The notes: generated by a model from the sequence alone, not told the origin. 64,000 nt of DNA from an uncultured Hormoscilla sp. (GCA_963921275.4 OZ001293.3:3264001-3328000); one strand, 5' to 3'. Positions 13,377 through 53,267 are shown, counted from the first letter of the stretch. Program-made: numbers and translations.

Positions 13377-15367
13377 ATGAAAAATCTGGAAAATTTAACT
13401 ATCCATAGTTTCCGGGGGCTGCCAGAGATCTGCTTGGAGTCCTTGGGGCAAATAAACCTGTTTGTGGGAGTCAACAACTCCGGCAAAACCAGCGTGTTAG
13501 AGGCGATATCAACTTACTGTCGTCCTTTGGATGGGGTCGAGCCGGGAATCGCTTCCCGACCCTCCCTTGAGGAACCGGACTTGCGATTTTCACCGCATCC
13601 GGCTACTGGGTACTAGGCCCTTTTCATAGGTAGACTTAATAGGAATTACTTCCGTTAGCCCTTGCCGCCTGTCTTTTCTTCCCTTTCCTGGTTTAGCGAG
13701 TGGTTGTTCTGATAACCGTTAGTATCACCATTTTCAAGTCAGTTTTACCAGTTATCCATACCTTATCCTCCACTTGCGTTTCGGATTAGTTCCGTGGCTT
13801 TTTAGGATTACTCATTCCAGCAGCTTCCTAGTATCACCGACCCACGTCAGCGCTGGCTACCCAGCATCATCTACATTACTGTAGATGTTATCCCAGGAAT
13901 TACCCCGGGCATTCGCTTCTTGGGCCATCCCTCCCCCCGTGGCTTGCGCTTAACATCTAACTTGTCCTGATGGACAGCACACGAGAGGTTACTTCGTTCC
14001 CTAACAACATTTCGCGATACCTTTAGGTCCACACTATACCCCGGGAGCTATTTGAGTACTATATTAGCCAGAGTCTAAAACTAATACTAGCTACCATTTC
14101 CTTTTTAGGCCAGCGCATATAGCCTTATTTCGCTGGTTCCTTATAACGAGGCTTGCACATGTTTGCCTGCTCTAACCTTGGATATCTTTCCTAGCGGCGT
14201 CACCGGCTTAGGCTGCCAGTTATCCTACATTTGAGTCCTCGCTTAGCACCACGATGATGTCGCTTCGTAGCACCGAGGACCGGTGTCACCCCCGTCCCCC
14301 GTACCTGGGGGGAGGGGAATTTAACCCCCATGCGGTCAGAGTTCCCGGCTAATGAAACCGGGCTAGCGTTCCGTGTTTGACCACGTTAGGCTAGAACGAA
14401 TCGCACAGACCCCCTAGGGTGGCTAAATACGGCATGGCGTCGAGAGATAAAGTCATCTCGCAAACCCCAGTTGGAAGCCCTCAAGTGGCTGTTTCCTCAG
14501 AATAGTACAGTCCCCGTCGGGGAGTTTTATCAGGGAGAAACCCATATCTCAGGGAATGGCAGATTTCCGGTGAGGAAGTCGAAAGCGATCTACCGAGAGT
14601 TTGAAGGAACAAAGCCATACCCTGATAAAATTGAGGATGACATTGAATACGAGGAAACGCAAACTGTTAGAGGTGCAGAATTAGAGCTAAACGTTGTCCA
14701 ACTCAGTTCAGATTATTTGCCATATAAGCATGAGGAATTATCGACAAATTTTCAAATTTGGGAAAATGAGCGTTTTGTTAATCGTGGCAGGCGCTCAAAA
14801 ATAGAGCTGCCAGTCGAGACAGTCACTCCAGTTTCTCACCGCATTGAGAAGTTACAAATGGAATCGTTATCAAAAGCGACTTTCCATGAGTTAAAGCAAG
14901 ATATCATCAAATTACTCCAAGTAATGGACGAGGGAATTATCGACTTAGATGTTCTATACGATACTGGAGGTACTCCGAGACTTTATCTCAAGCACAAACA
15001 GATAGGGCGATCGCCGTTAAGTGCTTTCGGTGATGGTGTCCGTTGTCTGCTGTACATCGCCTCAAGTTTGGTCAAAGTGCGAGGGGGAGTTCTGCTGATT
15101 GACGAACTAGAAACAGCCATTCATACTGAAGTGCTCAAACCCTCATTTTCGTGGCTAGTTCAATGGTGTCAGCAGATGGACGTGCAGCTATTTGCAACAA
15201 CTCACAGCTTAGAAACCGTTGACGAACTCTTGAGTGCTTCTAAGATAGCACCAGATTTGGTGCTATATCGATTATATCCACGGGAGTCGGAGACTAAATT
15301 GCTCAGAATAGATCGCGATCGACTGCAACGGCTGCGGCAAGATGTGGGTATGGAGGTGCGCTGGTGA
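13377..15367 (+). pseudogene. ABC-type ATPase, unit 3, interrupted by an antisense group II intron
   Basis: 13377-13528 joined to 14407-15367 gives an open 370-aa ATPase colinear with unit 2. The intron is on the opposite strand. Confidence 0.85.
13529..14406 (-). mobile_element. ORF-less group II intron A (878 nt)
   Basis: Minus strand starts GTGCGATTCG. Domain V AGCCGGATGCGGTGAAAATCGCAAGTCCGGTT; domain VI ends CTCGACCCCATCC. No RT ORF. Confidence 0.92.
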
Positions 15368-16143
15368 GGTATGCTATCATTGGGGTTGAGGGACCGCAAG
15401 ACCAAGCATTTGTTGGCAAGGTACTCAAGCAGCTACTGGGTTTCAAAGATTTTAGAAAGGAGTTGAGAGGATTAGAGGATAATTTGGACAAGTTCTGGCG
15501 CAAGTTTAAACCCAACTATCCCAAAGACGGAGATTTGTACAAGCGTCTAGACATGCCATCGATCCTGTATAATGATTCTGTTTCGGTGGCAATCTACGCA
15601 GGAGAGGGGAGTAACTTAGTGACTAATTTGGAGAGCATTATCTCCGCTCATACTCCCTATCAAAAAAAACTGATGGCATTTGGGATTGTAGCAGATGCCG
15701 ATCGCAAAGCGCCAGATGCGGTTGTGGAACCCTACTGTAATTGCTTTCGCAACTACTTTCCTAATTTTCCAGATCGGGCTGGGGCGATCGATACCAGCGT
15801 TCCTCGGACGGGAATTTACGTGTTCCCCGATAATGTTAAACCGGGAGTGTTGGAGACTTTGCTATGTCTTTGTGGGGAAGTTGCTTATCCCGATTACCTG
15901 GAAAGGGCCTAAGAGTATCTTGAGAAGTTATCGCCAGAGGAGAGAAAATCTCTGAAGTGGAAACCGTTCGATCGGGAAAAGGCTTTAGTTGCTACTGTGG
16001 TCAGCGTGTTGAAACCGGGGAAAACCAATACCGCGAGTATAGCAGATAATAATTGGGTGAGTGGGCAAACGGAAACTGAGGTGACGGCGCTAGCTAATTT
16101 CAGAGAGTTTTTGAGAGAACTTGTGAGTTTTGATGAAGGATAA
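15364..16143 (+). pseudogene. TOPRIM-motif protein (DUF3226-like), unit 3, single premature stop
   Basis: Colinear with 12451-13227 except CAA>TAA at 15910-15912. The frame continues to TAA at 16141-16143. Confidence 0.85.
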
Positions 16144-17284
16144 ACTAAAAGCTGTGGAATTGTTTGCTGGGATTGGCGGGTTTCGCCTGGGCATGGCAGC
16201 TGCTAACATAGAAACGGTATGGGCGAACGATCTCAGTACAGTTTGCTGTCGAGTTTATGAAAGTAATTTTGGTCAAGAGGCGATCGTCTTAGGGGATATT
16301 AGCAAAATCAATCCTGAAGAGATCCCCGAACACGACATTTTGACAGCGGGTTTTCCTTGCCAACCCTTCAGTCCGGCGGGTAAGAAACAAGGGGTGCGAG
16401 ATCTACGCGGAACGCTTTTCCAGCGCATTGTGGAAATTCTCCAGGTCAAACAACCGCAATATTTTTTGCTCGAAAATGTGAAAAGAATTCTGACAATGGA
16501 AAAGGGTCATCACTTCCGAGTAATTTTATCGGCATTGGTGGAGTTAAACTACGCGATCGAATGGCGGATCGTTAATCCGATAATATTGGGAATTCCCCAA
16601 AGTAGAGAAAGAGTTTTTATTATGGGAACGAAATGCGATCGGTTGAGTCCAATACCCGACTTAGAAAGATTATCAGTATTTTTGACCGATAATGATGGGG
16701 ATAGTTTAGGAAATTGGGAAAATGGTCTGTTGCCAATTAGGGAGGTAAGCAGTAAGAACTATAACTGGGGTATTGCTTACAATAATCAGATGTATACTCA
16801 GCAGTTACCACCATTGCCTGACATCAAACCCAGAAAGAAACTGAAGGATATTCTCCAATATGATTCCGAACTCGGTACCCAGTTTGATTTTACTGCGGAC
16901 ACGATCGATCGCATCAAGCAGAGTCAAGCAGTAAATCGCTATTGCAATGGGGTGGAAATATTATATAATCAGAAAGGAGGGGCGCGTTTGGGATATACTA
17001 TATTTGGGATTAACGGTGTGGCATCGACCTTAACGGCATCAACATCAAGGCATTACGAACGGTATCGGGTAGGCGATCGCTTTCGCCGGTTAACGCATGT
17101 CGAGTATGCCCGTTTAATGGGATTTCCTGATGACTGGTGCCGGGTGGCGAGAGTCTACGATCGATATGCCTTATTTGGGAATGCGGTAGTGCCAGCTTGT
17201 GTAGAGTGGATCTGCAAAAGAATTGGCCAGCAAAATTTTGAATTAAAGCATCCACAATGGCAACAACTGACTTTAGCAATTTAA
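16133..17284 (+). CDS. DNA (cytosine-5) methyltransferase of a type II R-M system
   Basis: Motifs LFAGIGG, AGFPCQPFS, LLENV, QSRERVF, RLMGFP and GNAVVP. Confidence 0.93.
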   Translation: MKDKLKAVELFAGIGGFRLGMAAANIETVWANDLSTVCCRVYESNFGQEAIVLGDISKINPEEIPEHDILTAGFPCQPFSPAGKKQGVRDLRGTLFQRIVEILQVKQPQYFLLENVKRILTMEKGHHFRVILSALVELNYAIEWRIVNPIILGIPQSRERVFIMGTKCDRLSPIPDLERLSVFLTDNDGDSLGNWENGLLPIREVSSKNYNWGIAYNNQMYTQQLPPLPDIKPRKKLKDILQYDSELGTQFDFTADTIDRIKQSQAVNRYCNGVEILYNQKGGARLGYTIFGINGVASTLTASTSRHYERYRVGDRFRRLTHVEYARLMGFPDDWCRVARVYDRYALFGNAVVPACVEWICKRIGQQNFELKHPQWQQLTLAI

Positions 17285-17302
17285 AATAGAGAGTCGCAGA
17301 AG

Positions 17303-18797
<1,495 letters not shown>

Positions 18798-19142: not shown

Positions 19143-21815
19143 TTACTCATCCTCTATCTCCTCATTCTCCATTAACAAGACATACTCCTCAATTTGCTTT
19201 GCCAAGTGAAGAGGTAAGGGAAGTTTGAGTGCTTCGTCATATTGGAGTGCAATATGTCGCAGTTTATGTGTCAGCGCTGCCCAGGGAAATACCTCATCTC
19301 TAGGTTGAAGACAGGCAACAGTTATTTCAAATAAACCAGGATTCCAGTAATATTTATGAGGTGATTTATTCTCTCCTGCTTTCGATTGATTAGGGCTGAG
19401 ATCCCTAAACTTCTTCGACTTTTGGTAAGTGCTAGCAAACACTCGATCGCCCATTTGAAAAACGCCCTCGGCAAACCCCTGTTGATTCCGATCCGGTTTT
19501 TGGGCATACCACTCTGGTGTTTCGTTACTCTGACTATCGCGAAGGCGCAAGATCCGAAGTCCTTTCAGGCGATTAATGTTGAGTGACCTTCCGTTGTTGC
19601 CAAAAGCCACAGTTTCGGTTGATATCTGTCCGTTGTTCAGCCAGGACCAAGTGCTTCGCAGGTTCTGAGCATGGCAGAGCAAGAGAGTGTCTCCCAGTGG
19701 CAAAACGTCACCCTTCAGTTTCTGCTCGATGAAGGACATAGCTTGTCCTTTACGATCGACTCCTTCTCGGGCAATTTTCAGCAGCGCCTCTCGATAAGGC
19801 AGCCAACTATCAAAACCAGGCGCGATCGCCTTTATTTCCGTGGTGTCCGATGCCATGTAAACCATCACTGGCACTCGCTGAGTAGTGCCATCTGCACTGG
19901 TTGGCGCATTCTGTTTAATTAACCACAAACCAACGTAGTTGAGCCGTTCTGGCAATTTGAGCTGCTTAGTATTTTTCTTTCTATCTTCTGTAAGAACTAT
20001 CTTTGGAGGCCCGACCTGTACTCCCATCTGACGCAGAAGATCGAGGAATCCAGTGATGGAACTATGGGACAGATTGGGATTATCAACGCTCATAAATTGC
20101 GTTATGCGTCCGGCGATGGCAAATCCCCGCCTGAGAGCGTTGTAGGGATCGCGATCGCTCTTAAAATTCTCCTTGCCTGCGATTTCGATCAAGGCTACAG
20201 TTACAGATGATGCTTGGGGAACTTTTTCTGCTATTTCTTTACCGCGCTGAATAATTGCCTGTTGTCGTCTGTCCCTTCTATTTCCCATATCGGAGTTAAG
20301 TTGCAACTCATCACCAAGAGCACCCAATGGCTGCGCCTGTATATTCAGGGTAAATTCCAGGTCGGGAAATTTGTAGGGAAATGAGGCGGATGCTGGAATT
20401 CCCAGACAATGACTGACAGATTTTATCAAAGTATCGCGTGTTGTCTCCCGTTGATACCAGATTTCTATTGTTAGGCGGCGATCGCTGACTGCTTCACTTA
20501 TGCTGACTGCTTCACTTATAGCGCCGCTAAGGACAGATTGAGTTTGTTGCAGCGTCTCCATCTTGGCTTCTGCTAGTTCTTCACCATCTTTTGCAGGTCT
20601 CGGCAACTCTGGAGATTGCGGGATAGAAGCAACATGAAACTTAACCCTCTGAGGCATTTCTACGAATTCCCACTCTGGTGCTATCAGGTTTGCTATCTGT
20701 TCGGCAAGCAGGCGACGGTCTGCTGGTGAAAAACCGGCATCAACCCGATGATCGGGTTTTATGCCATTTCGGAAAACCACCGCTTCGTTAGGACTGCCAT
20801 TCAGGTTTAGTGCTGAGGTCGGATATGCCACGATCTCCTCGGGAGTAGGAAAGGGCTGTTGAAGGTTCAACCTGTCTAATAAGGGTACTAAATTGCTGCC
20901 CCAATTTAGGCGGTACTGCGACTTATTTTGTTGCTGTTCCGATGCTGACAAGCGCTTCCATCCGATCGGCGCTACTTGAAAACTGTTTGAATTGTGCAGT
21001 TCCTCAAGCCAAGGAACTTTAGTGAGTAGATAAACACTGGTTTCTTCGCCACCAGGAATACTACTTTTTGGCTGACTAACCCAGCGCCGCAGACTCAGGT
21101 CGCAGTGGAGTACCGGGAAACTTTGGAAAGGCACTGTCTGAAGAGTAAAAGTAATCACAACAGACCAGTACCAACTGCTACGCTTGTCAGCATAATCGAG
21201 TGGCGGCCAAGAGACCAGTTCAGCCCCCTTGCTGCCAATAGGCAGCGGTGCGCGTCGAAAGCGGAGAAGATCCGAACCAAATTCAATCGATATGTTGTCT
21301 TGACTCAACTTGGCTGCCAAAACGTGGGGCAGCAAGATAAAGTTATTATTGCCTCTCAGTTCTGCCGTGCCGTTAGCTGCTGTCGTCCAGGTCCCTACAT
21401 TCACTGTCGTTGCTTCCCACTGCAAATCCTCTTTTGGCAGCTTTTTCAGCAAAGCGGTAATTTGCTTCTCAGAAGCCTTCCCATCAAATTGCGTTCTTAC
21501 CCAAGCATTGAAAATTAAATACAGCGCCTGTATATTGATAGGCATTGCACTGTACAGCCAAGGTTGCACCTTACTTTTAGCGGCGTTAGGAGTAATGTAG
21601 ATCAGGTCTGGCACCAGTGCCCGGAGGGCTTTGTTCAGCGAACTTATCGGCACGTTAGTTTTATCTACGGGACGGCGCGTAATCTCTGCCTGTAAATTCC
21701 TTAGCTCTGATTTCCATTTTTCAGGAAACTTGAGAATCTGAAAAGTCTGCGGTTTCAGAGGTTTGCCCTCTGGCAGACGAAAGGAAAGAGTCCGTAATTG
21801 GTCATAGATCGGCAT
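19143..21815 (-). CDS. pPIWI-RE protein (X, MID and RNase H-like PIWI domains)
   Basis: 890 aa. Motifs AELVSWPP, TLQTVPF, LRRW, AQNLRSTW, LRILRLR...ETPEW and the terminal LPLPLHLA. Lies downstream of a helicase and a nuclease. Confidence 0.88.
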   Translation of the reverse strand: MPIYDQLRTLSFRLPEGKPLKPQTFQILKFPEKWKSELRNLQAEITRRPVDKTNVPISSLNKALRALVPDLIYITPNAAKSKVQPWLYSAMPINIQALYLIFNAWVRTQFDGKASEKQITALLKKLPKEDLQWEATTVNVGTWTTAANGTAELRGNNNFILLPHVLAAKLSQDNISIEFGSDLLRFRRAPLPIGSKGAELVSWPPLDYADKRSSWYWSVVITFTLQTVPFQSFPVLHCDLSLRRWVSQPKSSIPGGEETSVYLLTKVPWLEELHNSNSFQVAPIGWKRLSASEQQQNKSQYRLNWGSNLVPLLDRLNLQQPFPTPEEIVAYPTSALNLNGSPNEAVVFRNGIKPDHRVDAGFSPADRRLLAEQIANLIAPEWEFVEMPQRVKFHVASIPQSPELPRPAKDGEELAEAKMETLQQTQSVLSGAISEAVSISEAVSDRRLTIEIWYQRETTRDTLIKSVSHCLGIPASASFPYKFPDLEFTLNIQAQPLGALGDELQLNSDMGNRRDRRQQAIIQRGKEIAEKVPQASSVTVALIEIAGKENFKSDRDPYNALRRGFAIAGRITQFMSVDNPNLSHSSITGFLDLLRQMGVQVGPPKIVLTEDRKKNTKQLKLPERLNYVGLWLIKQNAPTSADGTTQRVPVMVYMASDTTEIKAIAPGFDSWLPYREALLKIAREGVDRKGQAMSFIEQKLKGDVLPLGDTLLLCHAQNLRSTWSWLNNGQISTETVAFGNNGRSLNINRLKGLRILRLRDSQSNETPEWYAQKPDRNQQGFAEGVFQMGDRVFASTYQKSKKFRDLSPNQSKAGENKSPHKYYWNPGLFEITVACLQPRDEVFPWAALTHKLRHIALQYDEALKLPLPLHLAKQIEEYVLLMENEEIEDE

Positions 21816-24800
21816 TTATGCCTCCTATCTTTTCAATAGCTGTATAAAATGGTCCATAGAGTGCCTGCACCAGTTCCCGTTCTCGGGGCGCGATTTCCCT
21901 CTCAGAATCGGTGGCAAAATAAGGACGCAACACTTCTTTGATGCTGACTAACAGACTGGTTATTGGTTCGTCGCCTATATCGTCATTGAATGCAGTGCGC
22001 CGAGCAAAAGCAGCATCGCAGAAAAAGACTTCCGCTTGACAGCCACCCCTTATCAGACGCCAGATCGCCTGCCAGATGGAAACCAACTGATTCCATGTTA
22101 CAGCTTCTCGATCGTTTTCGCGCAGACTGCTGTAAATCATTGGCAAACTCATGAGATGACGCCAGCGAACGTAAGCCTCTTTACGGAATGTATTCCCAAC
22201 TCGATCGAGTGTTAGCAAACCATCCTGCTGTATATCCTGGGTAGTGCTAGTGCTAATATCGCTCTGTTGGGATACAGCACATTGAGCGGTCAGCCATTCG
22301 GTGTCGGCGTAATGTTCGATCGCCCAACGATTGATAGAATGAAGGGCATAGCTGATATCATCGGGACGGGGATGGGGACGCACGAGAAAATAAGCCGCGC
22401 CAATGGCAGCTTTATCCTCATCATTGAGAATATTATGTCCGCGCTCGATCGCCATCAAGGGTGCAATCAAAATCCAAGCACCCGTCTTGTCAAACTGATG
22501 TACGAGTCCCCGTTGTATCCCTCGCTCTCCAGTTCCCCCCTTACTCCATTGCGTACCAAACTCATCATCATCGCGAACCAGACGCAGAACTTGTCCGCGC
22601 CACTCAGATCGAATGTTTTCCAGATGTGTTTGGGCCAGTTTCGCCTGATCGTAACTACCTACAAGCAATAGAATGCGCTGACGCCCAACTTCTAGTTCAT
22701 CTCGTTTTCGCTCTAGTCTACTCGGACCGCCTAAACCGCCTGGTTTTGCCAATTGATTGAGCAGTTCTTTGAGTGCCCCTTCTCGGTCGTGGCTGCCAGA
22801 AACAGTAATTGGTTTGTTCTCTCGATCGTAAAATGGACTGAATTCAAAGTAGCTTTCTTGAATTGCCTGTAATTCTTCCTCGGGCGATCGCAGCACTCCC
22901 GCCACTGGTACCTGTACGTGATATCCCGGTGCTTTTCCTGCCCAACTTGTTCCTGAAAGCAACAAGACTGATGGTCCGGCAATGCCATCGCTGGCAAATA
23001 GTTCGTGCAGGTGCAGTAAGAACCAGCGTCCCACACCCATGCACTTGAAAAACCGCAAATCTCCCGGTCCGCTGTCGCTGGAACTGACATATTGGAAAGC
23101 TAGCACGTTACCCATCGGAGCCACGGGAATCACTCCTTCATAGTCTCTGGGCGGACTGTAGAATAACATCGAACTTTGCTCTTGTAACTTCAGAGGCTCT
23201 TCCACATGTTTCCAGTCCCGCAACATCCGGTAAAGTCGGTTTTGCAGCACTGCCACTAAGAGGGCAAATGGAGTTTGCACTATAGCATGTTCTCGTCGTT
23301 CTTCTGTCAAGGTGACATCAGGCTCTTTATTCTCATCGATCCATTCACCCAGGCGCAGGCGCAGCAGATCATCATCTATAACCGCGATCGCGAGCCGAGT
23401 CAGTTCGCACAGAGGGTTGTTGCTGCGATCGCCGAGGGGATCTCCGATGTAATTATTAAATTCTTCCATCAGTCGGCGATAGCCTTGATGCTTGTCGCGT
23501 GTCTTCTCGCGAGCGCCAGAAAGAGCGATCGCCAACTTGTCTAGAATTAGCCAGTCTGTAAAGTATTCTCTCCGATCGATCCACTCCCTGAGCGCTGGTT
23601 GTGGTTGACTCAGGATGAGGGCATAGATGCGACTCGTTGCCGTCTGCACCATGTCATGGGCTTTGCACCAGCGATCGACATCCGGATCGACCAATTGTCC
23701 GCGTCCCCCTTGATTTAGCTGCTGCACCACTGGTTGCTGAACTTGACTAAACCATCCATCCCCTTTCTGACCGAATAGCTTTTCCCCGGGACTGAACAAA
23801 CTGTCGAGTTGCACTTGCACTTGGTCGGCTTCATCAACAATGACCAAGTCGCTGCGACGATACACTAACTCGGAAAAACGAATGCTTTCCTGGTTTATTT
23901 GTGGCGCGACGCGACTGTAAACTAAGCTAGCTGGCGTAGCAATCCAAATTTTGGCATCCACTAAGTCCCGCTGTACCTGATGAAACGGGCAAGCACTATA
24001 GAGAGGACAAGCATAGGTTTTACTTGTATCTGGTTGTTCTTGTTCTTCATCATCTGATTCACTGGTGGGAGAGAGTGCCAGACAAGGCTGTTTGCCCGTT
24101 AAGAAAGGTTTTGCCACATCCCGACGCAGTTCGCTTAAAGGACAAGCGGTACTCAGCCACCGGAAACCGACGTGTTCTTGATTGAATTTTTCTAAGGGAT
24201 GTTCGGCATTCCAGGCACGGTGCAAGCGGTTAGTATGGCGATCGCGGTTGGATGCACCCAACATGGGAGCAACGGAGATCCCTAAGCGATCGAATAGTCG
24301 AGCGCGGTTCAGGGCCGAGATCACGTCTCCGACGACGATCGTTACGTGGAGTTCCTGTTTAGCAGCCCAAACTGCCAAGATATCCATTAAAGTTGATTTC
24401 CCTGAAGACACCATCCCGATCAGGTGCATCAACCCATTAAATGTTAGCTTCTCAGCACGAGTGAGGGTGTCATCGGAACCAAACAGGTCTAGGCGTACCC
24501 TGGATAGACGTTCTTTCCAGTTACCGTCAGACTGAGTATCCATCCACCGAGCAGTCTCCAGCAAATCTTCCCAAGTAACAGTAATTGTCTGTCTTTGATT
24601 AATCCCCGTCAAGTCGTGACCAGACGGTGGCGGAAATACCAACTCCTCAGCCAGATCGACAGTGACTCGATATTTGCCATCGCTACACTCGTACTTACCA
24701 GCAGTAGCCCATTTAACCGAGTTTTTCCGATGGGGTAGAGGTTCTTCAAGAGTCTTCCCGTGGATGGGGTCGAGCCGGGAATCGCTTCCCGACCCTCCCT

Positions 24801-26032
24801 TGAGGAACCGGACTTGCGATTTTCACCGCATCCGGCTACTGGGTACTAGGCCCTTTTCATAGGTAGACTTAATAGGAATTACTTCCGTTAGCCCTTGCCG
24901 CCTGTCTTTTCTTCCCTTTCCTGGTTTAGCGAGTGGTTGTTCTGATAACCGTTAGTATCACCATTTTCAAGTCAGTTTTACCAGTTATCCATACCTTATC
25001 CTCCACTTGCGTTTCGGATTAGTTCCGTGGCTTTTTAGGATTACTCATTCCAGCAGCTTCCTAGTATCACCGACCCACGTCAGCGCTGGCTACCCAGCAT
25101 CATCTACATTACTGTAGATGTTATCCCAGGAATTACCCCGGGCATTCGCTTCTTGGGCCATCCCTCCCCCCGTGGCTTGCGCTTAACATCTAACTTGTCC
25201 TGATGGACAGCACACGAGAGGTTACTTCGTTCCCTAACAACATTTCGCGATACCTTTAGGTCCACACTATACCCCGGGAGCTATTTGAGTACTATATTAG
25301 CCAGAGTCTAAAACTAATACTAGCTACCATTTCCTTTTTAGGCCAGCGCATATAGCCTTATTTCGCTGGTTCCTTATAACGAGGCTTGCACATGTTTGCC
25401 TGCTCTAACCTTGGATATCTTTCCTAGCGGCGTCACCGGCTTAGGCTGCCAGTTATCCTACATTTGAGTCCTCGCTTAGCACCACGATGATGTCGCTTCG
25501 TAGCACCGAGGACCGGTGTCACCCCCGTACCTGGGGGGAGGGGAATTTAACCCCCATGCGGTCAGAGTTCCCGGCTAATGAAACCGGGCTAGCGTTCCGT
25601 GTTTGACCACGTTAGGCTAGAACGAATCGCACCGACTCGATCGCGGTTAGAACAAATGCTGACTTCCCGGGACGAAAACGGTTCTAGGTTCTCGTCTACA
25701 TTGAAACCTCGCAGAATCTCGTCTACTTGGCGATAGCGCTGCAACGATCGCTCCCAATTGTATTTGCTTCTAAATTGGGTGAGAATATGGCGGGCATTAC
25801 CTAGCATCCGATGTTGTTTTTCACTCCAGTTTGCTGCTGACGCCACGGGAAACGGATAGCCCGTCAGCAACACCCATAGGGCAATGGCCGGGGCATCCGA
25901 GTCCAACTGAGACAAGAGATAAAGCCCCAACTCAATATCACAAAATGTGGAAAAATTCAAATCCGTTGCTGTTTGCTTCAGGCGATCGCGTATTGCTTTC
26001 AGTTTCTCTCGCCATTTACTTGTATCGCGCAT
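21802..26032 (-). CDS. DinG-like SF2 helicase of the pPIWI-RE operon, split by a sense group II intron; exons 26032-25633 and 24761-21802
   Basis: Spliced ORF is 3360 nt / 1119 aa. Walker A GMVSSGKST, VDEAD, LLLSGTS, ERGHNI, and Cys motifs (TACPL, QPC, ACPLYSACP). Confidence 0.85.
24762..25632 (-). mobile_element. ORF-less group II intron A' (871 nt)
   Basis: Appears identical by eye to 13529-14406 except for a 7-nt duplication in that copy. Confidence 0.93.
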
Positions 26033-26281
26033 TTACTTCTTTCTCCCTAGAACGTCGGTACTGATAACCGGGTTTCTGCGAATGGTTCTAACCCAAGCAA
26101 TACTATCTTGCATTTCTAGGCGATCGCGCCACATCCCTACAAACGCTGAATTTTCTAAATTTAACGGTTTTGGTGCTTGTTCGTAGCGTTCCTTGAGAGT
26201 AGCCACAAAATCTAAAACCCGTTGTCGATCTGTTTCAGAAAGGGTGATAAAGTCACTTGTTAAGCGTTCAATATCAAGCAT
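26033..26281 (-). CDS. Small DUF2281-like protein (antitoxin-like)
   Basis: 82 aa: LSETDRQRVLDFVATLK...FVGMWRDR...DSIAWVR. Its stop abuts the helicase ATG (TAAATG). Confidence 0.55.
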   Translation of the reverse strand: MLDIERLTSDFITLSETDRQRVLDFVATLKERYEQAPKPLNLENSAFVGMWRDRLEMQDSIAWVRTIRRNPVISTDVLGRKK

Positions 26282-26450
26282 AAATTTCTCCTTTTTTATG
26301 AAAATTGGGTTCTGACTAACCGCCAAAATCTGCACGACACTCACATGGGATTGGTCGCCATCGCCTGTAGTAACCTTTGAAAACATACTATTTCAGTAAA
26401 CAAACTTTTACTACTCAATTCCAGAAGTCCCGAAGTTTCTAGCTTCTACT

Positions 26451-26950
26451 TTACGGACGATCTAGCTTGCGTTTTACATCTTCAATTAACTCCTTCTCAA
26501 ACTTGGCCTTAATCTGCTTGGGAAGCCCTGTATGGTTGCAAAATGCTCGTTTATAATCGGAACGTTGTTGCTGGCGATCGTCTGGGAAGACGAAGTAACC
26601 TTGCTTCCAAGGTGGGTCGCTGGGAATCAGCGGATCTTGCTGCTTAACTTTCCGTGCCAACAAGAAAGGATCTTTCCAATCTTTAACATCGATCGCCCAT
26701 GCCTCGCCGTCTGGGAAAACAATTCGCAGATCGTAGCTGTCAAAATTAGGCCATAGTTCCACTTGCAGTTCCAACTTTTCCAGTTTATCAGCCAATCGGA
26801 GTTCGGCGCGACCGGGTGCCGCTACAAACCGCCGTGGTCCTCGCTTCAACCAAAGCACTCCCTCTTTTTGGGGAACCTGACGCCACTGGCAATTAGATGT
26901 AAAGTCAACTCGTCGAACGATAGCGCTGGTTCATTGTAGCTAGCAGTCAT
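26451..26950 (-). pseudogene. pPIWI-RE-associated PD-(D/E)XK nuclease, N-terminally truncated
   Basis: PGRAELRL, LWPNFDSYDLRIVFPDGEAWAIDVKDW. The frame closes about 25 codons upstream and no N-terminal domain is recognisable. Confidence 0.78.
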
Positions 26951-30228: not shown

Positions 30229-30419
30229 TCCCTGCTATCATCTAACAATCTTATCACACTTTCTCACCTATTGTCAACGATCGCCCCTGAGGGGAATCTC
30301 GATCGCCAGTCACCTCGGGCGCATCTCACTTTTGTAATCTAGCCCGCGCAGGCGGGCTTTGTTCGCGTAGCCGGGCCCTTTAGGGTTCGGGCGGCTAAGC
30401 AAATATGAGATGCACCCGT

Positions 30420-36446: not shown

Positions 36447-36607
36447 AGTAGCACGATGGATTAAACCTGATGATTGACCATTATAACGCTATTCTGTCAA
36501 ACTGGGGGTCGCGATCGTCTGAAACCATTATTCTCTGGGCGTTTGCGCCCCCAAGCTATTTTACGAACGTTTCTATCAGAACCCAGAAGCTCAAATCTAG
36601 ATATTCT

Positions 36608-38983
36608 GTGCGATTCTTTAGTGTAAAACGACTTGACACAAGTTAAGAGTGGAACCAATAGCTAGGTATCATTAGCCTAGACAACTTACAGATGATGGTG
36701 GTGAAAGTCCACCTCTCCAGGTGCAGGAGTGACAGCACTTTCCCTAGGGTAGCGATGGCATCAATCCGTAAAGCGGGAATGAAAGGCGCCCTAACTGGTA
36801 GCCCACACCGGTTATCGTCGAGCAATTAGTCACGATGAGCGCAAGCAAAGATTTACAGCGTCGTTACAGACAACCAGTGTAATAAGGCTGACACACTGGC
36901 CCAAAAGGGAAAGGATATAAGTCACTGGCGGGTATTAGACCGACCAGTAAGCACCGACAATAAACCCGGCGAACGGAATCCATCTAAAACTACGACCAAT
37001 CATCTGTAGGAACGAAGTAAACCAGGTATGTACTCTCTACCACCGGTCGATAGGTAGAGCAGCCACCAAAGGCGCAACATCTGCTCTCATCAGGCAGGTC
37101 ATACTTGGGAAAGATTTCGTGGAGAAGCAAACGACCACCGGTAATAGGTGGTATACGCTGACGCCCTCACGGTAATGTCAAAAGTAAAGTTGTAAGTAGC
37201 AGTGAAAACGTCATAAGCACGATGGACACATCTTGCTTATGAATGGAAAGATACCCCCTGGCGAAAGCTGGAGAGGATAGTCTTTAAGTTGCTTCTGAGA
37301 ATTTACAGAGCGGCACAACGTGATGATAAGCGGACAGTTCGCAGAGAGGTTACTGGTAAAATCCCGGGCTGCCAAAAGTCTAGCGGTACGACAGATAACA
37401 CAAGATAACCAGGGAAAGAAAACTGCCGGTGTGGACGGTGTGAAATCATTGACCCCAAAGCAGAGGATGGAATTGGTAGGACAAATAGAAATCTCAAACA
37501 GGGCAAAACCTGCACGACGAGTGTGGATACCAAAGCCAGGGAGAGATGAAAAGCGTCCATTGGGAATACCGACGATGTACGACCGTGCGACACAGGGGTT
37601 ACTTAAAATTGCGTTAGAACCTGAATGGGAAGCGTATATGGAAGGTAACAGCTACGGATTCAGACCGGGGAGAGGATGCCACGATGCAATCGGAGCAATA
37701 TTCAATAGCATCAGACTAAGACCCAAATGGGTACTAGATGCTGACATTGCGAAATGCTTCGATAAAATTGACCACCAAGCGCTGATAAAAAAACTAAATA
37801 CGACATCACCAAATCCGTAAACAAATACGGGCATGGCTAAAAGCCGGGGTGATAGACAAGAAAGAGTGGTATGCAACCAACGAGGGTACACCCCAAGGGG
37901 GAGTCATATCCCCATTATTGGCGAACATAGCTCTACACGGGTTAGAAGAAGCTGTAATGGACCTGGCAAAAACACAAAGAGAAAAAAGCAAACTGACGGT
38001 AGTTAGGTATGCCGATGACTTTGTGGTAATGCATGACGATAGAGAAAAAATAGAAGAAGCGCAGACGGTCATAGCAAAGTGGCTAGAAAGAATTGGGCTA
38101 GAGCTTAAGCCGGAGAAGACCCAAATAGCTCATACGCTATACGGCGAAAACCCAGGATTTGACTTCTTAGGATTCAACGTGAGACAATATGAGGTAAGTA
38201 AAAACAGAAGTGGTAAAAATTCAAATGGAAAAGCTCTAGGTTTCAAAACCCTCATCAAACCCAGTAAAAAATCCATAGGTAAGCATAAAGAAAGGTTAGC
38301 GCAAGTAGTAACCAGCCATAGTGCAGCCCCACAAGCTGCCCTGATAAGCAAACTCAACCCGGTAATACGAGGATGGGCGAACTACTTCAGGACTGGAGTA
38401 AGCAAAGAAGTTTACTCTGATATGGACCACTACCTATGGGGACTCCTATGGAAATGGGCAAAAAGAAGACACCCTAATAAGTCAAAACACTGGATAGCCA
38501 GGAAATACTGGTCAGTTGGCCAAGGACAATGGCGATTCCGGTGCGGGGCAGAAGGGGAAGTTGAGCTATATCGATACGCAAGTGTAGAGATAGTAAGACA
38601 CGTAAAAGTACAAGGAACAGCAAGCCCATACGACGGGAACCTCACGTACTGGAGCACGAGACTAGGCAAGAACCCAGAACTAAGTAATCGGGTAGCAAAG
38701 CTACTGAAAAAGCAGAAGGGTAAATGTCAATACTGCGGATTAACATTTATGGACAGCGACAGATGGGAAGTAGACCACATCGAACCACTCTCATTAGGTG
38801 GCAGGGACCGGTGGGATAACCTACAAATGTTACACAAACATTGCCACGATATAAAGACTGCCAACGATAGTAGTAGCCGTACCCGTGACAAGGGTGGCAT
38901 TACTGAGGAGCTGGATGAGGTGAAAAGCAGATCGTCCGGTTTTGAAGACGAGCCGGGGTGGTGACACCCTGACTTAGTTTAAT
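36608..38983 (+). mobile_element. RT-encoding group II intron (chloroplast-like type)
   Basis: Starts GTGCGATTC. Domain V GAGCTGGATGAGGTGAAA...GTCCGGTTT; ends TAGTTTAAT. Confidence 0.9.
37230..38964 (+). pseudogene. ltrA: Group II intron reverse transcriptase/maturase with HNH domain, two frameshifts
   Basis: KTAGVDG, RPLGIPT, SYGFRPGR, GTPQGGVISPLLANI, YADD, HNH (EVDH...NLQMLHKHCH). Frame breaks near 37347 and 37812. Confidence 0.9.
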
Positions 38984-40623: not shown

Positions 40624-41534
40624 GTGCGATTCGTTCGTAAATGACCCGCAACAGGTCATGAGCGACCGGTTACATCAACCGGGAACTTTGATGTTCATGG
40701 GGGTTAAATTCCTCCCGCCCAGATGCAGGGTTGACACCGGTCGGAGGTGCTGCGGAGCGATATCACCGTGGTGCTGAGCGAGGACTCAAATGTAGGATAG
40801 CTGGTAGCCTAAATCGGTGACTCCGCTAGGAAAGATATCCAAGGTTAGAACAAGCGAACGTATAAAAACCTCGTTAACCAAAACCAGCGGAATAAGGCTA
40901 TATACGCTGGCCCCAAAAGGGGAAGCAGTCAGGGCTAGCTTTGGGCAGTGGCTAGTCATGTATCCGAAAGACTGTCGGGGAATAGTACGGACCTAAAGAT
41001 ATCGTGAAATGACATCAAGGAACGAAGTAACCTCTCGTGTGCTGTCTGGTCTCGACCGGCTAGACAAGTTAGATATTAAGCGCAAGCCACGGGAGGAGGG
41101 ATGTCCCAAAAAGCAAATGCCCAGGGTAATGCCTGGGATAACGCCCGGAGCAATCCCGGTGATGTCCACAAGGACACTGACGTGGGACGGATATACCAGG
41201 ATGCTGTTCAGATTAGTAACTCCACATATATTATGAGCCCGATTTGGACCCCTCGGGGACTGATGGAGGTATGAGTGAAGGTGTAGGTGAAACAGGGTGA
41301 CTGCCGTCGGACGGCGATATAAACTAGGCGAGAGACCACAGGTTCCTTGACAACCGCTCGCTGACCTGCACATAGAAGGAGCCAACAAGTAGACAGTAAG
41401 GGCCTACGGTGGGTAACCCCTATAAAGCCTATCCATGACAAGGACCTGGTAACCAGTAGCCGTGTGCGGTGAAAGTCGCAAGCACGGTTTCGCTCTTGGA
41501 GGGTTGGGGAGCGATTCCCAGCTCGACCCCGACC
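40624..41534 (+). mobile_element. ORF-less group II intron C (911 nt)
   Basis: Starts GTGCGATTCG. Domain V AGCCGTGTGCGGTGAAAGTCGCAAGCACGGTT; ends CTCGACCCCGACC. The flanks join in frame (DWITAQAWKRVW...) in a gene remnant ending at 41674. Confidence 0.9.
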
Positions 41535-48130: not shown

Positions 48131-48143
48131 AATATATCTGATA

Positions 48144-49155
48144 ACTCAAGTTGCGACCTATAAAAATTGGATACAAAAAGCTATGATAAAGAGAATTATT
48201 TTCAACTCTAATCCCTTAGATGTAACAGCATGAATTGACTTGGGAAACAAATTGGTGATTCGACTAAAACAGGTTTCAACTTGTTTTCTTGTTACTTTTT
48301 GTATATATTCAAAACAAGAATATTCTTTTCTTTTTGAGTTCTTTTTTCGCAAAGGTTTTAACATTATACTTGACGACTCTTTTAGTAAATCCTCTAATTG
48401 ATAATCATTATAAGCTTTATCTCCATAAACTATTGAATTTGATGGTAAGTCAAAGCCAAAAGATTGCAAAACTTTAACATCATTATAACTACCAGGATCT
48501 AGATAAAATTCTATTGGCTTTACATTTTTGTTTACCAACATATGAACTCTTAATCCATAAAAATAACGTTTTTTACTGGCAATATACCCTCGATATTCTT
48601 CCTTGTTATAAATTTGGCATCTATCAATCCTAATATTATCACATACTGGCACCGGGAAACTATCAAGAATATATTCTTGACCCGGATTGAGCTCTTTAAA
48701 TGTTTGAGCTATAACTTGGAAGAAAAACATCCAAATTGGTTCCTCAATATTGTGTAATCGACGATTGAACCTACTTTTACTTAACAGATTTTTTATATAC
48801 TTGTGTTGGACCATAAATTGACAAGAGCGATCGTGGTGTCCTCCGAAAAAATATGCAGCAACTAATCCGACTATCATCGCTTCGGCATTGTTCATTTTTA
48901 CTTGTGGATCTTCTTTTATATTTAACGCTTTTAGTAGCTCGTCACAAAGAACAAAAATTGTTGTAATCATATCTTCCATCATCTACATCCCCCAGCAATT
49001 AACTATTATTTTAGTACATTATAACCTATAAACAGCCAACCCGCCGCATAGCACAAAAAAAATATAATTTTGTATCAAAAGCTACGAAATATCCCAAATA
49101 TCTGTAAAGTCTAAGTGGGTAATTCATATTTTTTTTAATAGGTCGCAACTTAGGT
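48144..49155 (-). mobile_element. IS982-family element with intact 274-aa transposase (48158-48982)
   Basis: TIRs ACTCAAGTTGCGACC / GGTCGCAACTTAGGT with 9-bp direct repeat TATCTGATA. Motifs LDSFPVPVC, YFYGLRVH, GDKAY, RKQVET. Confidence 0.92.
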
Positions 49156-49590
49156 TATCTGATAATAGAGCTAGTCATGGCTCCGAGAGCATCAGGATTG
49201 GCTGAAACCCTTGCAGGGCAATAATTTCAGCAGTGCTGCTTACCGCAATTTTAGTACAAATGTTGGCTAGTGTGTTATAACTACTCACTGTTCGCTTATT
49301 TTAAAATGAATTAGGAAAATTGATAAAAAAAGCTTTTTGGTACAAGTTATGCTATTGTAGAAGAAGAAAGCCCATTGCTCCTAAGCTGTCGCGCATTCAA
49401 ACTGCATATTGAAAAAATGGCCATGCTGGCGCTCAAAGCTTATTTAGACAGGGTTGCCACTATTTAACCCGATAGGCTTCTATGCAATGAGGATGCAGCT
49501 TGTTATTCAAGAGCAAGTAAATAGTGTTATGCTAAAAGGACAAACTTTTGCTCGCTCCCAAAAACCTCTCCATCAAGTCAACTAAACTCT

Positions 49591-51630: not shown

Positions 51631-51844
51631 TATCGTTAACTATGACCTTTATCAATTCTTGGGCATTCCGATTGGCTCTGGGGAGGTAGAGTCTGTAGTC
51701 AAGCGTATTGGTTCTCGTCTCAAGCTCTCTGGGGCTCAATGGCTTCGGACGTCAGTTAAACAAATGCTTCCCTTACGCTATGCTTATCTTAATGGCGCTT
51801 TTTCTCTGAGTACAACTACTTAGTGCAAAACTGGGATACTCCCC
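51631..51844 (+). pseudogene. 3' fragment of a second ISKra4-like element
   Basis: IVNY...IGSGEVESVVKRIG.RLKLSGAQW, ending GGGATACTCCCC. Confidence 0.7.
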
Positions 51845-52085
51845 ATGTAGAATTATTAGAAGGTCAGATTGTAGAAATGAGTCCTCAAGGTCCACTCCAT
51901 GCAGGCACTACCCAACGCGCCTCTGATTATATCAAAGCTCAATTAATTGAACAAGCTCATGTCCGGACGCCGTTGCCCGTTACTTTGTCAACTTCTGAAC
52001 CGGAACCAGACGTGGCCGTAGTTCTGATCGATCGGGGTGCCTATGGCGACCATCATCCCACTCCAGAGGAAATATTTCTCCTTAC
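51845..52085 (+). pseudogene. Uma2-family endonuclease fragment
   Basis: VELLEGQIVEMSP.GP.H...SEPEPDVAV...HPTPEEIFL, truncated at both ends. Confidence 0.75.
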
Positions 52086-52350
52086 AATACTCCGGACAAA
52101 ATTAGGAGGCTATGGCCCCGTAGGCAAGCAGGTTCTGGTAGTTCCTTCGATATCTCCCGGTGCTGCCGAAACGTGGGAGCGCGGTTGAGCACTACCCACG
52201 TTTCGGCAGCGCGCTAAAAGCACAACTGGTGGGGAGACATCTTTGTGAGATTTAATCTTTCCTCCACTGTTGACTATGTCTCGGCTGCGTTCGGAGACTC
52301 TAGAGGGGGAAGACACCTGGTCTAGAGCACCTTGGGTTATCTCTCTTGGT

Positions 52351-53267
52351 GGTCGGGGTCGAGCTGGGAATCACTCCCCAACCCTCCAAGAGCGGAACCT
52401 AAAGAGCGACTTTCACCGCACACGGCTACTGGTTAGTAAGCTGTTGTCATCAGTAGGTTTACTCACGGTTATCCCCGTTGTCCCTTACCCTTTGAAATTT
52501 TACCCCTTATGGTCAATCCTATTGGACCGCTTAAGTACTTAGCTCCGGAAGGTTCGCGGAGGATAGTCCAGCAAACCATACTCGCCGCTCTTTACTAACA
52601 TCTTCCCCATTCTGCTTTCCGCTTTTCGTAGGGGCTCTGAACTTTACCTGGCTAAGATTTGAATCCAACATTCCTACTATTCGGGGTTTCTCACTAGTTT
52701 TGCGACATTAGGGCTACTTTCCCCAAGGGTGTCTTACCATATCCGTCCTACGTCTGCATATCCACAGGCATTATCCTGGGCATTAGCTTCTTAGGACATC
52801 CTTCCTCTTCGTGGCTTGCGCTTTACATCTAACTTGTCCAAATGGGGACAGCTCACGAGAGGTTACTTCGTTCCCTAGTATCATTTCACGATGCTTTTAG
52901 GTTCCTACTTTACCCCGAGAGTTCTTTGAGTACGTTATTAGCCAGTGGACACAGCTCATACTAACTACCATTTCCCTTTTGGGCCAGCGCCTAAGCCTTA
53001 TTCCGCTGGTTTAGGTTTACGAGGCTTACATAGGTTCGCTTGTTCCAACCATTAGCATCTTTCCTAGCGGCGTCACCGGCTTAGGCTGCCAGTTATCCTA
53101 CATTTAAGTCCTCGCTCTGCACCACGGCGATGTGGCTCCGTAGCACTGAGGACCGGTGTCACCCCCGCACCTAGGGGAGGGGAATTGAACCCCCATGATT
53201 ACCAGAGTTCCTAGTTTCCTAGGCTAGCGTTCCGCGTTTGACCACGTTAGGCTAGAACGAATCGCAC
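52351..53267 (-). mobile_element. ORF-less group II intron D (917 nt)
   Basis: Minus strand starts GTGCGATTCGTTCTAGCC. Domain V AGCCGTGTGCGGTGAAAGTCGC...; ends CTCGACCCCGACC. Confidence 0.9.

Follow-up and report, generated by a model that had tools for sequence, protein, structure and literature searches.

The closest described counterparts of the introns analysed here are TeI3 and TeI4 of Thermosynechococcus elongatus. There, ORF-less TeI3 introns form families defined by EBS1, EBS2 and EBS3 and are mobilised in trans by the IEPs of TeI4, the ORF-containing introns (Mohr, Ghanem & Lambowitz 2010, PMC2882425). In TeI3c, IBS1 lies at exon positions -1 to -6 and IBS2 at -8 to -13, and EBS3 and IBS3 form a U-A pair (PMC3706431). 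EBS-diverged ORF-less families that depend on IEPs supplied in trans (PMC2882425) are the basis of thermotargetrons (PMC3706431).

We analysed a 64,000-nucleotide stretch of DNA, termed the window, in which five ORF-less introns lie within ~40 kb of a cyanobacterial genome. Like TeI3 of the CL/IIB1 pair TeI3/TeI4, these are ORF-less IIB introns of a cyanobacterium in families that differ in EBS1, EBS2 and EBS3 and sit at matching sites. Further likenesses (PMC2882425) are that some insertions match their sites poorly and look ectopic, that the genome also has related introns with an ORF, and that nested introns occur in relatives. The IBS layout also resembles that of TeI3c, with -1 to -6, about -8/-9 to -13, and +1 with a U-A pair (PMC3706431). 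The overall picture matches that of TeI3/TeI4 of Thermosynechococcus, a type of mobile RNA element already described in cyanobacteria.

There are also differences. The window sub-lineages are 78-84% identical to each other, compared with 85-100% in TeI3/TeI4 (PMC2882425), and mobilisation in trans, which is described for TeI3/TeI4, is putative for the window family. TeI3 lost its ORF by deletion in DIVb, leaving N- and C-terminal remnants, whereas tblastn found no remnants in the window family, whose DIV has no similarity to that of the co-resident RT lineage. Thus, either the ORF loss is older than in TeI3 or the parent lineage lies outside the sample. The exon positions WAA at -16 to -14, recognised by the TeI3c/4c IEP (PMC3706431), are not conserved in the five window sites. 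As in the window, protein-coding genes of Trichodesmium, a filamentous cyanobacterium, are split by ORF-less introns, and trans-encoded maturases are thought to be needed for splicing. Of the 17 Trichodesmium introns for which splicing in vivo is documented, 10 have no ORF, whereas splicing of the window introns is predicted. Finally, targetrons and the thermotargetron TeI3c-4c resemble the window sub-lineages in that EBS1, EBS2 and EBS3 are changed on a constant scaffold, but they are engineered and use a defined IEP in cis or in trans, whereas the window family is natural (PMC3706431). An earlier note on this DNA had spoken of a natural retargetable element. This is overstated, since such families are known in T. 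elongatus (PMC2882425) and as thermotargetrons (PMC3706431), and our findings leave the current understanding of group II introns unchanged.

Five ORF-less introns belong to one family

The earlier note had listed five ORF-less group II introns, here termed A, A', B, C and D, and a profile search confirmed each of them in position and strand:

13529..14406 (-): intron A, 878 nt, antisense within a PDC-M38A-type ATPase gene
17787..18621 (+): intron B, 835 nt, sense, within a type II restriction endonuclease (REase) gene
24762..25632 (-): intron A', 871 nt, sense, within the gene of PprDinG, a pPIWI-RE helicase
40624..41534 (+): intron C, 911 nt, with an ORF open across the junction (51+46 aa)
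52351..53267 (-): intron D, 917 nt, decayed; the 3' strand of DV is broken, and an A at EBS3 faces an A at IBS3

A profile built from these introns recovers exactly the five and one more distant match within the window, at 36604-37020(+). All five have the 5' end GTGCGATTCGTTC in common, with GUGCGA (group II consensus GUGYG) at their 5' terminus, and share domain I blocks; the mean column identity is 76%. Domains V and VI had also been described as common to all five, but D is decayed and has a broken DV. The Rfam model RF00029 (Intron_gpII, DV/DVI; gathering score 40 bits) is passed by four of the five introns (B, 46.6; C, 45.0; A and A', 44.4 bits each). D is not matched by it even at E<=1, owing to mutations in the 3' strand of DV, and the MFE fold of D lacks a DV hairpin. 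When the whole window was subjected to cmscan at E<=1, only DV/DVI-type families were found and no Rfam group II D1-D4 model matched. The DVI 3' strand reads CUCG-A-CCCC followed by 4 nt, so that the A falls 8 nt from the 3' junction (expected 7-8); from the Rfam consensus alignment this bulged A is the predicted branch point.

For A', B and C, a reading frame runs on through the junction, which backs the intron boundaries; for A' and B, matches to protein profiles also continue from one exon into the next. The first base of the 3' exon is A at all five sites, as originally reported. The absence of an RT was likewise borne out: the five introns have longest ORFs of 23-75 aa, and when 11 intron RT proteins of >450 aa served as tblastn queries, none of them matched at E<=1, and thus no ORF or RT remnant was seen. 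The five elements are therefore ORF-less subgroup IIB group II introns of a single family with four sub-lineages, A/A', B, C and D, which are about 78-84% identical to each other.

EBS1, EBS2 and EBS3 covary with the exons

The 3' half of domain I has a covarying hairpin with a terminal loop of 9 nt, of which 6-7 nt make up EBS1 and pair with exon positions -1 to -6(-7). EBS2, 5 nt directly 5' of the conserved AACCAGCG hairpin (AACCAG), pairs with -9 to -13. The third nucleotide downstream of the closing CGGGG helix, ~35 nt 3' of EBS1, is by itself EBS3 and pairs with the first base of the 3' exon (+1). In the five introns they are found at the following positions:

14071..14076 (-): EBS1 of A, AGACUC; EBS2 14139-14143; EBS3 14036
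25304..25309 (-): EBS1 of A', AGACUC; EBS2 25372-25376; EBS3 25269
18108..18113 (+): EBS1 of B, UGCACU; EBS2 18041-18045, UCUAG, paired 5/5; EBS3 18148
40943..40948 (+): EBS1 of C, GGGCAG, to which a U adds a 7th pair; EBS2 40877-40881; EBS3 40983
52945..52950 (-): EBS1 of D, GUCCAC; EBS2 53012-53016; EBS3 52910 = A, mismatched

The pairings between the loop and the upstream exon are as the earlier note had written them. All positions pair in A (6/6), C (7/7) and D (6/6); D has Watson-Crick pairs throughout, and A and C have one G.U each. In A' and B, 5/6 positions pair, the exceptions being A.G at -1 in A' and A.C at -4 in B, which also has one G.U.

The assignment of the variable loop to EBS1, on which the original claim depended, was upheld in 58 related copies and in the alignment of a 16-copy subfamily, both of which gave EBS-IBS covariation. 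An unbiased column-by-exon scan of the 58 copies singles out this terminal loop for -1 to -6 (z 3.7-4.8). A perfect 6-mer is present in 35/58 copies, compared with 16.6% in the null of a 50-nt scan, and 0/2000 permutations reach the observed mean. In the subfamily alignment 89.6% of the EBS1 cells are paired, with double changes at all 6 pairs, as are 82.5% of the EBS2 cells; slid registers give 31-48% and 0/500 shuffles match. The stem of the EBS1 hairpin is 99% paired and shows compensatory changes. For EBS2, the 58 copies have a mean of 3.88/5 paired positions versus 2.02 in the null, a perfect match in 23/58 versus 1.2%, and 0/2000 permutations that reach this value. In 21/25 copies the EBS3 column forms a Watson-Crick pair with +1 (z 5.5), the runners-up being the next column for +1 (z 2.8) and, overall, a column for +2 (3.0). 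All five window introns have a U directly 5' of EBS1, as do copies with C, G or T at +1. Since this U is invariant and does not track +1, and EBS3 lies away from the EBS1 loop, the layout is that of subgroup IIB, not IIA.

The claim that each intron matches its own target stands for the overall fit (EBS1+EBS2+EBS3), which is 11, 8, 11, 10 and 10 of 12 for A, A', B, C and D, compared with 2-7 of 12 at the sites of other lineages. It falls short for A', which has EBS2 2/5 and the mismatch at -1, and for D with its EBS3 mismatch and broken DV. The data support the view that targeting relies mostly on RNA pairing, now with EBS2 and EBS3 in addition to EBS1.

A and A' are a recent copy pair

The sites of A and A' involve the following features:

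13379..15367 (+): PDC-M38A-like ATPase gene, disrupted by antisense A
11426..11475 (-): empty site in an intact PDC-M38A paralog, junction 11445/11446, IBS1 GGGUCU, +1 A
10550..10599 (-): empty site in a PDC-M38A fragment, junction 10569/10570, IBS1 GAGUCU, +1 A
21802..26032 (-): PprDinG gene (Z domain + helicase) of a pPIWI-RE operon, host of A'; exon 1 26032-25633, exon 2 24761-21802

A and A' are identical in 871/871 aligned bases, the sole difference being a 7-nt tandem duplication in A, and this identity points to a recent copying event in the A lineage. The family had been called recently active, which is supported for the A lineage. Excising A restores an ORF of 370 aa on the + strand. 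The uninterrupted PDC-M38A paralog aligns up to both junctions of A, the ends of which are defined by the empty paralogous sites. At both of these sites IBS1 is equal to or better than that at A, and GAGUCU is the perfect Watson-Crick complement of the EBS1 of A.

At the A' junction the ORF is open (133 + at least 200 aa). The PADLOC PprDinG profile is covered from 11-95 by exon 1 and from 109-924 by exon 2, and Pfam pPIWI_RE_Z matches across the junction with positions 4-110 and 116-167. A and A' had been described as near-identical introns at unrelated sites. The genes are indeed unrelated, but a short motif is common to both sites: they have G(G/A)GUC at -6 to -2, A at +1, and 7/10 identical positions at +1 to +10. 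Together with the poor EBS fit given above, A' looks like an ectopic insertion.

Host context of B, C and D

B lies in codon phase 1 of its host gene, which comes after a C5 methyltransferase gene:

17303..18797 (+): type II REase gene, host of B; exon 1 17303-17786, exon 2 18622-18797

The ORF is open across the B junction, and the PADLOC profile REase_II PDLC03454 is matched from 1-161 by exon 1 and from 163-217 by exon 2. The flanks of C and D gave no recognisable gene or family match to protein-family profiles, and at the D junction there is no ORF across on either strand. The EBS3 mismatch and the broken DV indicate that D is a relic.

A sixth intron carries a decayed RT gene

The span covered by the earlier note also holds an RT-bearing intron that the note does not mention:

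36608..38983 (+): sixth group II intron, 2376 nt, with an RT-maturase-HNH pseudogene and a mutated DV

Its Pfam domains are RVT_N, RVT_1, GIIM and HNH, and its RT is split into four frame pieces by three frameshifts relative to an intact homolog of 596 aa. It has a full-length megablast match to Hormoscilla loci at about 75% identity, and the EBS fit to its own flanks is poor (3/5 and 5/6, off-loop). We infer that the sixth intron, like D, is a dead relic. Its pseudogene is the only RT gene in the window, which holds no intact one. By blastn, the RT-type introns resemble the ORF-less family in the domain I core and in DV but nowhere else, and there is no similarity in DIV; in domain I the mean column identity of the family and the window RT intron is 71%. 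The closest PDB match of the window RT is chain C of 6me0 (E 6.6e-62), an entry titled 'Maturase reverse transcriptase', which we take to be the T. elongatus T.el4h RNP, a CL/IIB1 intron. This is an indirect lead towards the chloroplast-like (CL) class. Related introns of Hormoscilla MAGs have intact RT ORFs of 595-618 aa. By analogy, the ORF-less family would be mobilised in trans by an IEP made elsewhere.

Relatives in Hormoscilla

ORF-less relatives with the same RNA scaffold are found in the Hormoscilla sp. MAGs GUM202, GM7CHS1pb and SP12CHS1. Among the matches listed, all 26 profile matches of at least 250 bits are in Hormoscilla loci, and no insertion site common to Hormoscilla and window copies was seen. 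The Hormoscilla copies are 75-90% identical to those of the window, have their EBS at the same positions and covary with their own exons. Many copies occur at different sites, nested insertions included. In one MAG three related copies (L086-L088) lie within about 3 kb, so the earlier argument from a high intron density in the window is overstated. A literature search turned up no mention of group II introns for Hormoscilla.

Mobility and its alternatives

We consider it likely that the five introns form one ORF-less IIB family of four sub-lineages which addresses each site through three RNA pairings and spreads non-autonomously by means of an RT/maturase acting in trans. The EBS1, EBS2 and EBS3 pairings would then be used for splicing from RNA as well as for reverse splicing into DNA, and spread as a non-autonomous retroelement would proceed by reverse splicing followed by target-primed reverse transcription. 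As with TeI3 of Thermosynechococcus, the RT/maturase would be the product of an intron at another place in the genome. Of the five introns, A, A', B and C are probably still able to splice. Several observations speak against such spread, namely the missing intact RT in the window, the empty paralogous sites, the poor fit of A' and the decay of D. In addition, the RT-bearing lineage is unlike the ORF-less family, whereas the 85-100% identity noted above for TeI3/TeI4 is much closer.

The same missing RT, and empty sites with perfect or equal IBS1, would also be expected if the introns only spliced and no longer moved, EBS-IBS pairing being kept by selection for splicing and the A/A' pair being due to a DNA-level event such as gene conversion. 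B and A' do reside in genes where splicing would matter. We nevertheless regard this as unlikely. A is antisense to its host, so that selection for splicing can neither explain its insertion nor uphold its 11/12 match. Moreover, A and A' agree at all of 871 nt, compared with 78-84% identity in the other pairs, and conversion requires that both sites were already occupied by the same lineage. Finally, the Hormoscilla copies occupy many different sites, including nested ones.

It is even less probable that an extinct intron burst has left all copies as inert relics, which today neither splice nor move. The state of D, the dead RT intron and the location of C and D in no recognisable gene would fit such a scenario. 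However, A, A', B and C score above the Rfam DV/DVI threshold and have a fully paired EBS1 hairpin stem, there are no substitutions between A and A', and the REase and PprDinG frames are intact on either side of their introns. We give almost no credence to the idea that the loop is not EBS1 and its complementarity a coincidence: the earlier note rested on five copies, and 6-nt matches with G.U are easily found by eye (16.6% in the null), but coincidental pairing is rejected by the permutations, the shuffles, the slid registers and the unbiased scan, which picks the EBS1 loop alone for -1 to -6.

On the reading that the family spreads through a trans-acting RT/maturase, the window offers a well-resolved natural example of group II intron retargeting, in which four sub-lineages with one scaffold differ in EBS1, EBS2 and EBS3 and the identical A/A' pair marks recent movement. 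The window also contains two empty paralogous targets. The family seems to be without a close RT-bearing parent and can be used to ask how far IEP specificity can be relaxed. A bolder proposal, to which we assign a low probability, is that the ORF-less scaffold is an old, self-sustaining, non-coding SINE-like lineage of Hormoscilla and the window organism which, without a close RT-bearing parent, borrows a distantly related IEP of relaxed specificity, so that expression of the REase and the pPIWI-RE helicase would be conditional on that maturase. If so, immunity would be subject to a switch at the level of splicing. Of the five copies, three are located in genes of defence (those of the type II REase, PprDinG and PDC-M38A), where mobile introns interrupt or inactivate genes of immunity.

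Five ORF-less group II introns on one scaffold

The five elements that the earlier note had described as group II introns lacking an ORF are indeed of that kind. They are, together with their domain V/VI (DV/DVI) matches to the Rfam model RF00029:

13529-14406, minus strand: intron A; DV/DVI at 13531-13607, minus strand, 44.4 bits
24762-25632, minus strand: intron A'; DV/DVI at 24764-24840, minus strand, 44.4 bits
17787-18621, plus strand: intron B; DV/DVI at 18543-18620, plus strand, 46.6 bits
40624-41534, plus strand: intron C; DV/DVI at 41455-41521, plus strand, 45.0 bits
52351-53267, minus strand: intron D; no RF00029 match even at E<=1

Their identity follows from several lines of evidence. 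At their 3' ends, four of the introns match RF00029 above its gathering score of 40 bits. A profile built from the five introns and searched against the window recovers exactly those five and one weaker match, 36604-37020 on the plus strand. The longest internal ORFs are only 23-75 aa long, and tblastn searches of the five introns with 11 intron reverse transcriptase (RT) proteins returned nothing at E<=1. Moreover, in an end-to-end alignment the 5' end, GTGCGATTCGTTC, is invariant and mean column identity is 76%. The Rfam domain I-IV models gave no match in the window (E<=1).

Guide nucleotides covary with the exons

Relatives were gathered by scanning contigs with an 18-nt conserved block, which yielded at least 91 stretches, at least 80 of them with flanks. 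Among the matches listed, 47 of 91 loci belong to three Hormoscilla MAGs and the others mostly to other filamentous cyanobacteria; 14 listed loci without a profile match are chance matches in other phyla. The listed loci and the window together provide 62 intron 5' ends, or 58 once four exact duplicates (overlapping or identical loci) are removed. This set comprises the six introns of the window, one of them RT-bearing, and ORF-less and RT-bearing relatives.

We compared each alignment column with each exon position from -1 to -20, using exon shuffles as the reference. Two tracts emerged from this unbiased scan, and none beyond them was prominent. The columns directly 5' of AACCAG covary with exon positions -9 to -13 (z 5.2-7.1), which identifies them as EBS2, and the variable loop covaries with positions -1 to -6 (z 3.7-4.8), as expected for EBS1. 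The best EBS1 matches in the 58 copies concentrate at a single loop position. In a 16-copy subfamily, both-sided changes are seen in all 17 pairs. The insertion sites are unrelated sequences, and the covariation therefore reflects independent insertions rather than shared exon ancestry. Thus, the assignment of the loop to EBS1 in the earlier note holds, and the pairing across the relatives' copies lies far above the permuted and slid controls.

Pairing between intron guides (EBS) and exon targets (IBS); the introns compared are kin, and the shuffle nulls ignore that kinship
EBS1 perfect 6-mer, 58 copies: observed 35/58; null 16.6%
EBS1 permutations reaching the observed mean: 0/2000
EBS2 mean pairs of 5 in fixed register, 58 copies: observed 3.88; null 2.02
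EBS2 perfect copies: observed 23/58; null 1.2%
EBS2 permutations reaching the observed mean: 0/2000
IBS1-EBS1 cells paired, 16-copy subfamily: 89.6%
IBS2-EBS2 cells paired, 16-copy subfamily: 82.5%
Hairpin stem cells paired, 16-copy subfamily: 99%
All 17 pairs together, 16-copy subfamily: 90.8% paired; slid controls 31-48%
Shuffles reaching the observed value, 16-copy subfamily: 0/500

In the consensus fold of 14 copies (RNAalifold), an 8-bp hairpin has EBS1 in its 9-nt terminal loop, EBS2 is at the junction directly 5' of a CCAGCG/CGCUGG hairpin, and a CCUCG/CGGGG helix encloses both. The third nucleotide past the closing CGGGG helix is the EBS3 column. Among 25 full-length copies, in which the +1 base is A in 14, C in five, G in four and T in two, this column is Watson-Crick complementary to +1 in 21, plus one G.U (z 5.5); the runner-up columns reach z 2.8 for +1 and z 3.0 overall (a +2 column). 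The U directly 5' of EBS1, in contrast, is constant irrespective of the +1 base, which together with the EBS3 column indicates a IIB layout. A IIA-type delta-delta' interaction was considered and rejected, EBS3 taking its place: each of the five window introns has a +1 A with which this U could pair, but the U is also retained in relatives that have C, G or T at +1. An EBS2 picked by eye, GGUUA/GGCUA near intron position 230 (against UAGCC/UAACC at varying distances), was dropped when the scan gave the fixed register 5' of AACCAG.

Fit of each copy to its own site

Pairs formed by each window intron with its flanking exons
A: EBS1 6/6; EBS2 4/5; EBS3 1/1
A': EBS1 5/6 (A.G at -1); EBS2 2/5; EBS3 1/1
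B: EBS1 5/6 (A.C at -4); EBS2 5/5; EBS3 1/1
C: EBS1 6/6 plus a seventh pair; EBS2 3/5 (four contiguous pairs with a one-nt shift); EBS3 1/1
D: EBS1 6/6; EBS2 4/5; EBS3 0/1

On a scale of 12, own sites score 11 (A), 8 (A'), 11 (B), 10 (C) and 10 (D), and the sites of other lineages 2-7. The claim that each loop matches its own target thus goes somewhat too far: the fit is poor for EBS2 and position -1 of A' and absent for EBS3 of D. D also has five changes in the 3' strand of DV and forms no DV hairpin on folding, and we read this intron as a probably dead copy.

Between A and A', 871 of 871 aligned positions agree, the sole difference being a 7-nt tandem duplication in A; all other pairs of introns are 77.6-83.6% identical. 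The duplicated unit, ACGGGGG, lies in domain I at intron positions 105-111 (window 14296-14302, minus strand). Near-identity had been noted before, along with unrelated sites; the sites, however, have in common G(G/A)GUC at -6 to -2, the +1 A, and seven of ten bases at +1 to +10. Such a pattern would be expected if retrotransposition had reached a look-alike site. A' is the likelier ectopic copy, because it fits its site less well than A.

Host genes

When the intron is taken out at the coordinates given in the earlier note, an ORF runs through the junction for A' (133 plus at least 200 aa), B (167 plus 58) and C (51 plus 46). For B and A' the junction is fixed to the residue by protein profiles. 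The PADLOC type II REase profile PDLC03454 is matched at its positions 1-161 by exon 1 and 163-217 by exon 2 of the B host, the split codon accounting for position 162, so that B splits the endonuclease gene of a restriction-modification pair. In the A' host, PprDinG matches 11-95 in exon 1 and 109-924 in exon 2, and Pfam pPIWI_RE_Z is split 4-110 and 116-167; A' splits the helicase gene of a pPIWI-RE operon.

10423-15912, plus strand: PDC-M38 candidate defence pair (AAA_15/21 ATPase and DUF3226) in tandem paralogs, 88-92% identical
16130-17284: methyltransferase gene paired with the B-split endonuclease
19143-26858, minus strand: pPIWI-RE operon (prokaryotic Argonaute-like), which besides the PprDinG gene split by A' has an unnamed 117-aa ORF
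19143-21815, minus strand: PprPIWI of this operon
26451-26858, minus strand: PprRE-type REase of this operon

Intron A is antisense to its host. Without it, a 370-aa P-loop ATPase ORF matching PDC-M38A is restored on the opposite strand, and splicing of A cannot rescue this gene. The host gene aligns as far as both junctions of A with its uninterrupted paralog, 11228-12454, and with a gene fragment at 10423-10725. The empty sites in these two PDC-M38A paralogs carry as IBS1 GGGUCU, the same as A, in one and GAGUCU, the perfect Watson-Crick complement of the EBS1 of A, in the other. Besides the N-terminal fragment, the tandem contains two pairs: one intact (11228-13227), the other with the ATPase disrupted by A and a short DUF3226 ORF (182 aa).

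Intron C lies within a short unnamed ORF or is intergenic, and no ORF encloses D on either strand. Defence genes thus hold three of the five window copies. A general preference for such genes was dropped: for the 17 Hormoscilla ORF-less copies among the matches listed, 11 have an open stretch of at least 50 aa at the 5' junction, and a Pfam search of these 5' flanks gave a defence-related family in 0/11 and one weak HEAT match. The defence association is therefore not general.

A sixth intron and the source of the RT

An RT-bearing intron at 36608-38983, plus strand, falls inside the span covered by the earlier note, which does not mention it. It aligns over its full length, at ~75% identity, with Hormoscilla introns whose 595-618-aa ORFs are intact. 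Its own ORF has RVT_N, RVT_1, GIIM and HNH domains; the nearest solved relative of its RT is PDB 6me0 chain C (E 6.6e-62), which we take to be the T. elongatus T.el4h RNP. This intron is probably dead: three breaks, near 37347, 37812 and 38924, divide the ORF into four frame pieces when it is compared with an intact 596-aa homolog, the EBS sites fit the flanks poorly and DV carries mutations.

No intact RT driver for the ORF-less family was found within the 64-kb window. The likeness of the sixth intron's RNA to this family is confined to the domain I core and DV, and neither ORF remnants nor DIV similarity to RT-type introns was found in the five introns. By sequence, the family did not arise by a recent deletion from the RT lineage seen here. 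Mobilisation in trans would thus be the best reading by analogy only.

A locus of Microseira wollei (L044:827-5580) contains an RT-size intron of 2486 nt with a 583-aa ORF, which begins directly after the DVI of another intron. Its DVI end is of the ORF-less type. This intron may be an RT-bearing relative of the scaffold, but against the ORF-less profile its domain I has a low score (54-69 bits).

Comparison with known introns

Published accounts describe closely similar systems. T. elongatus has 28 introns, 17 of them ORF-less, and its 25 intact introns form six families by EBS1/2/3 sequence; they sit mostly at well-matched sites and at a few poor ones, include twintrons and are mobilised in trans by the IEPs of related introns (Mohr et al., 2010, PMC2882425). 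TeI3c is reported to have the same layout as the window family (IBS1 at -1 to -6, IBS2 at -8 to -13, IBS3 at +1 with a U-A pair; PMC3706431). Bacterial ORF-less introns are described as rare and nearly always found beside related IEP-encoding introns in the same genome (Zimmerly and Semper, 2015, PMC4424553). In Trichodesmium, ORF-less introns account for 10 of the 17 whose splicing in vivo is documented (PMC4649490), and group II introns are reported to number more than 100 in some cyanobacterial genomes (Miura et al., 2022, PMC8919778). Targeting by RNA pairing through the EBS1 loop stands; the natural retargetable element that the earlier note saw in this family corresponds to the textbook picture of the class. 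The window family differs in having older sub-lineages, no recognisable parent and a defence-gene location for three of its five copies; these differences are of degree.

All 26 scaffold matches of at least 250 bits among the matches listed are in Hormoscilla loci; our literature search found no mention of group II introns in this genus. Three related ORF-less copies (L086, L087 and L088; contig RFFC02000040.1, 28150-30753) lie ~1 kb apart in one Hormoscilla MAG. Dense local clusters are therefore not unique to the window, which tempers the earlier note's point on density. The 5' exons of these three copies are nearly identical, and a further locus, L085, is ~3 kb upstream. Hormoscilla MAGs also contain nested introns, in which introns home into introns: in L075, near locus position 337 on the minus strand, an ORF-less intron has a second one, in sense orientation, within its EBS1 hairpin, and in L007 (2012-3665) and L081 a host intron carries an antisense copy at this hairpin.

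Other features of the window

A CRISPR array suggested at 30340-30363, minus strand (Rfam CRISPR-DR28, 36.6 bits) was rejected: the GC-rich palindrome stands alone, and allowing up to three mismatches gives no further copy of it. The HIP1 palindrome (GCGATCGC), with 0.8 occurrences expected in the window, is present 43 times, which together with the 88-90% identity of the IS copies to Hormoscilla loci points to a cyanobacterium related to Hormoscilla. The six introns, 10.6% of the window by length, contain none of these by coordinates, where ~4-5 would be expected; the introns may be young in this genome, or the palindrome may be disfavoured in the ribozyme. Finally, an IS4/IS5-family element with a 274-aa DDE_Tnp_1_3 transposase is present in two copies (48143-49158 and 56737-57752), which are 99.3% identical to each other and 88-90% identical to elements in two Hormoscilla loci (L067 and L025).
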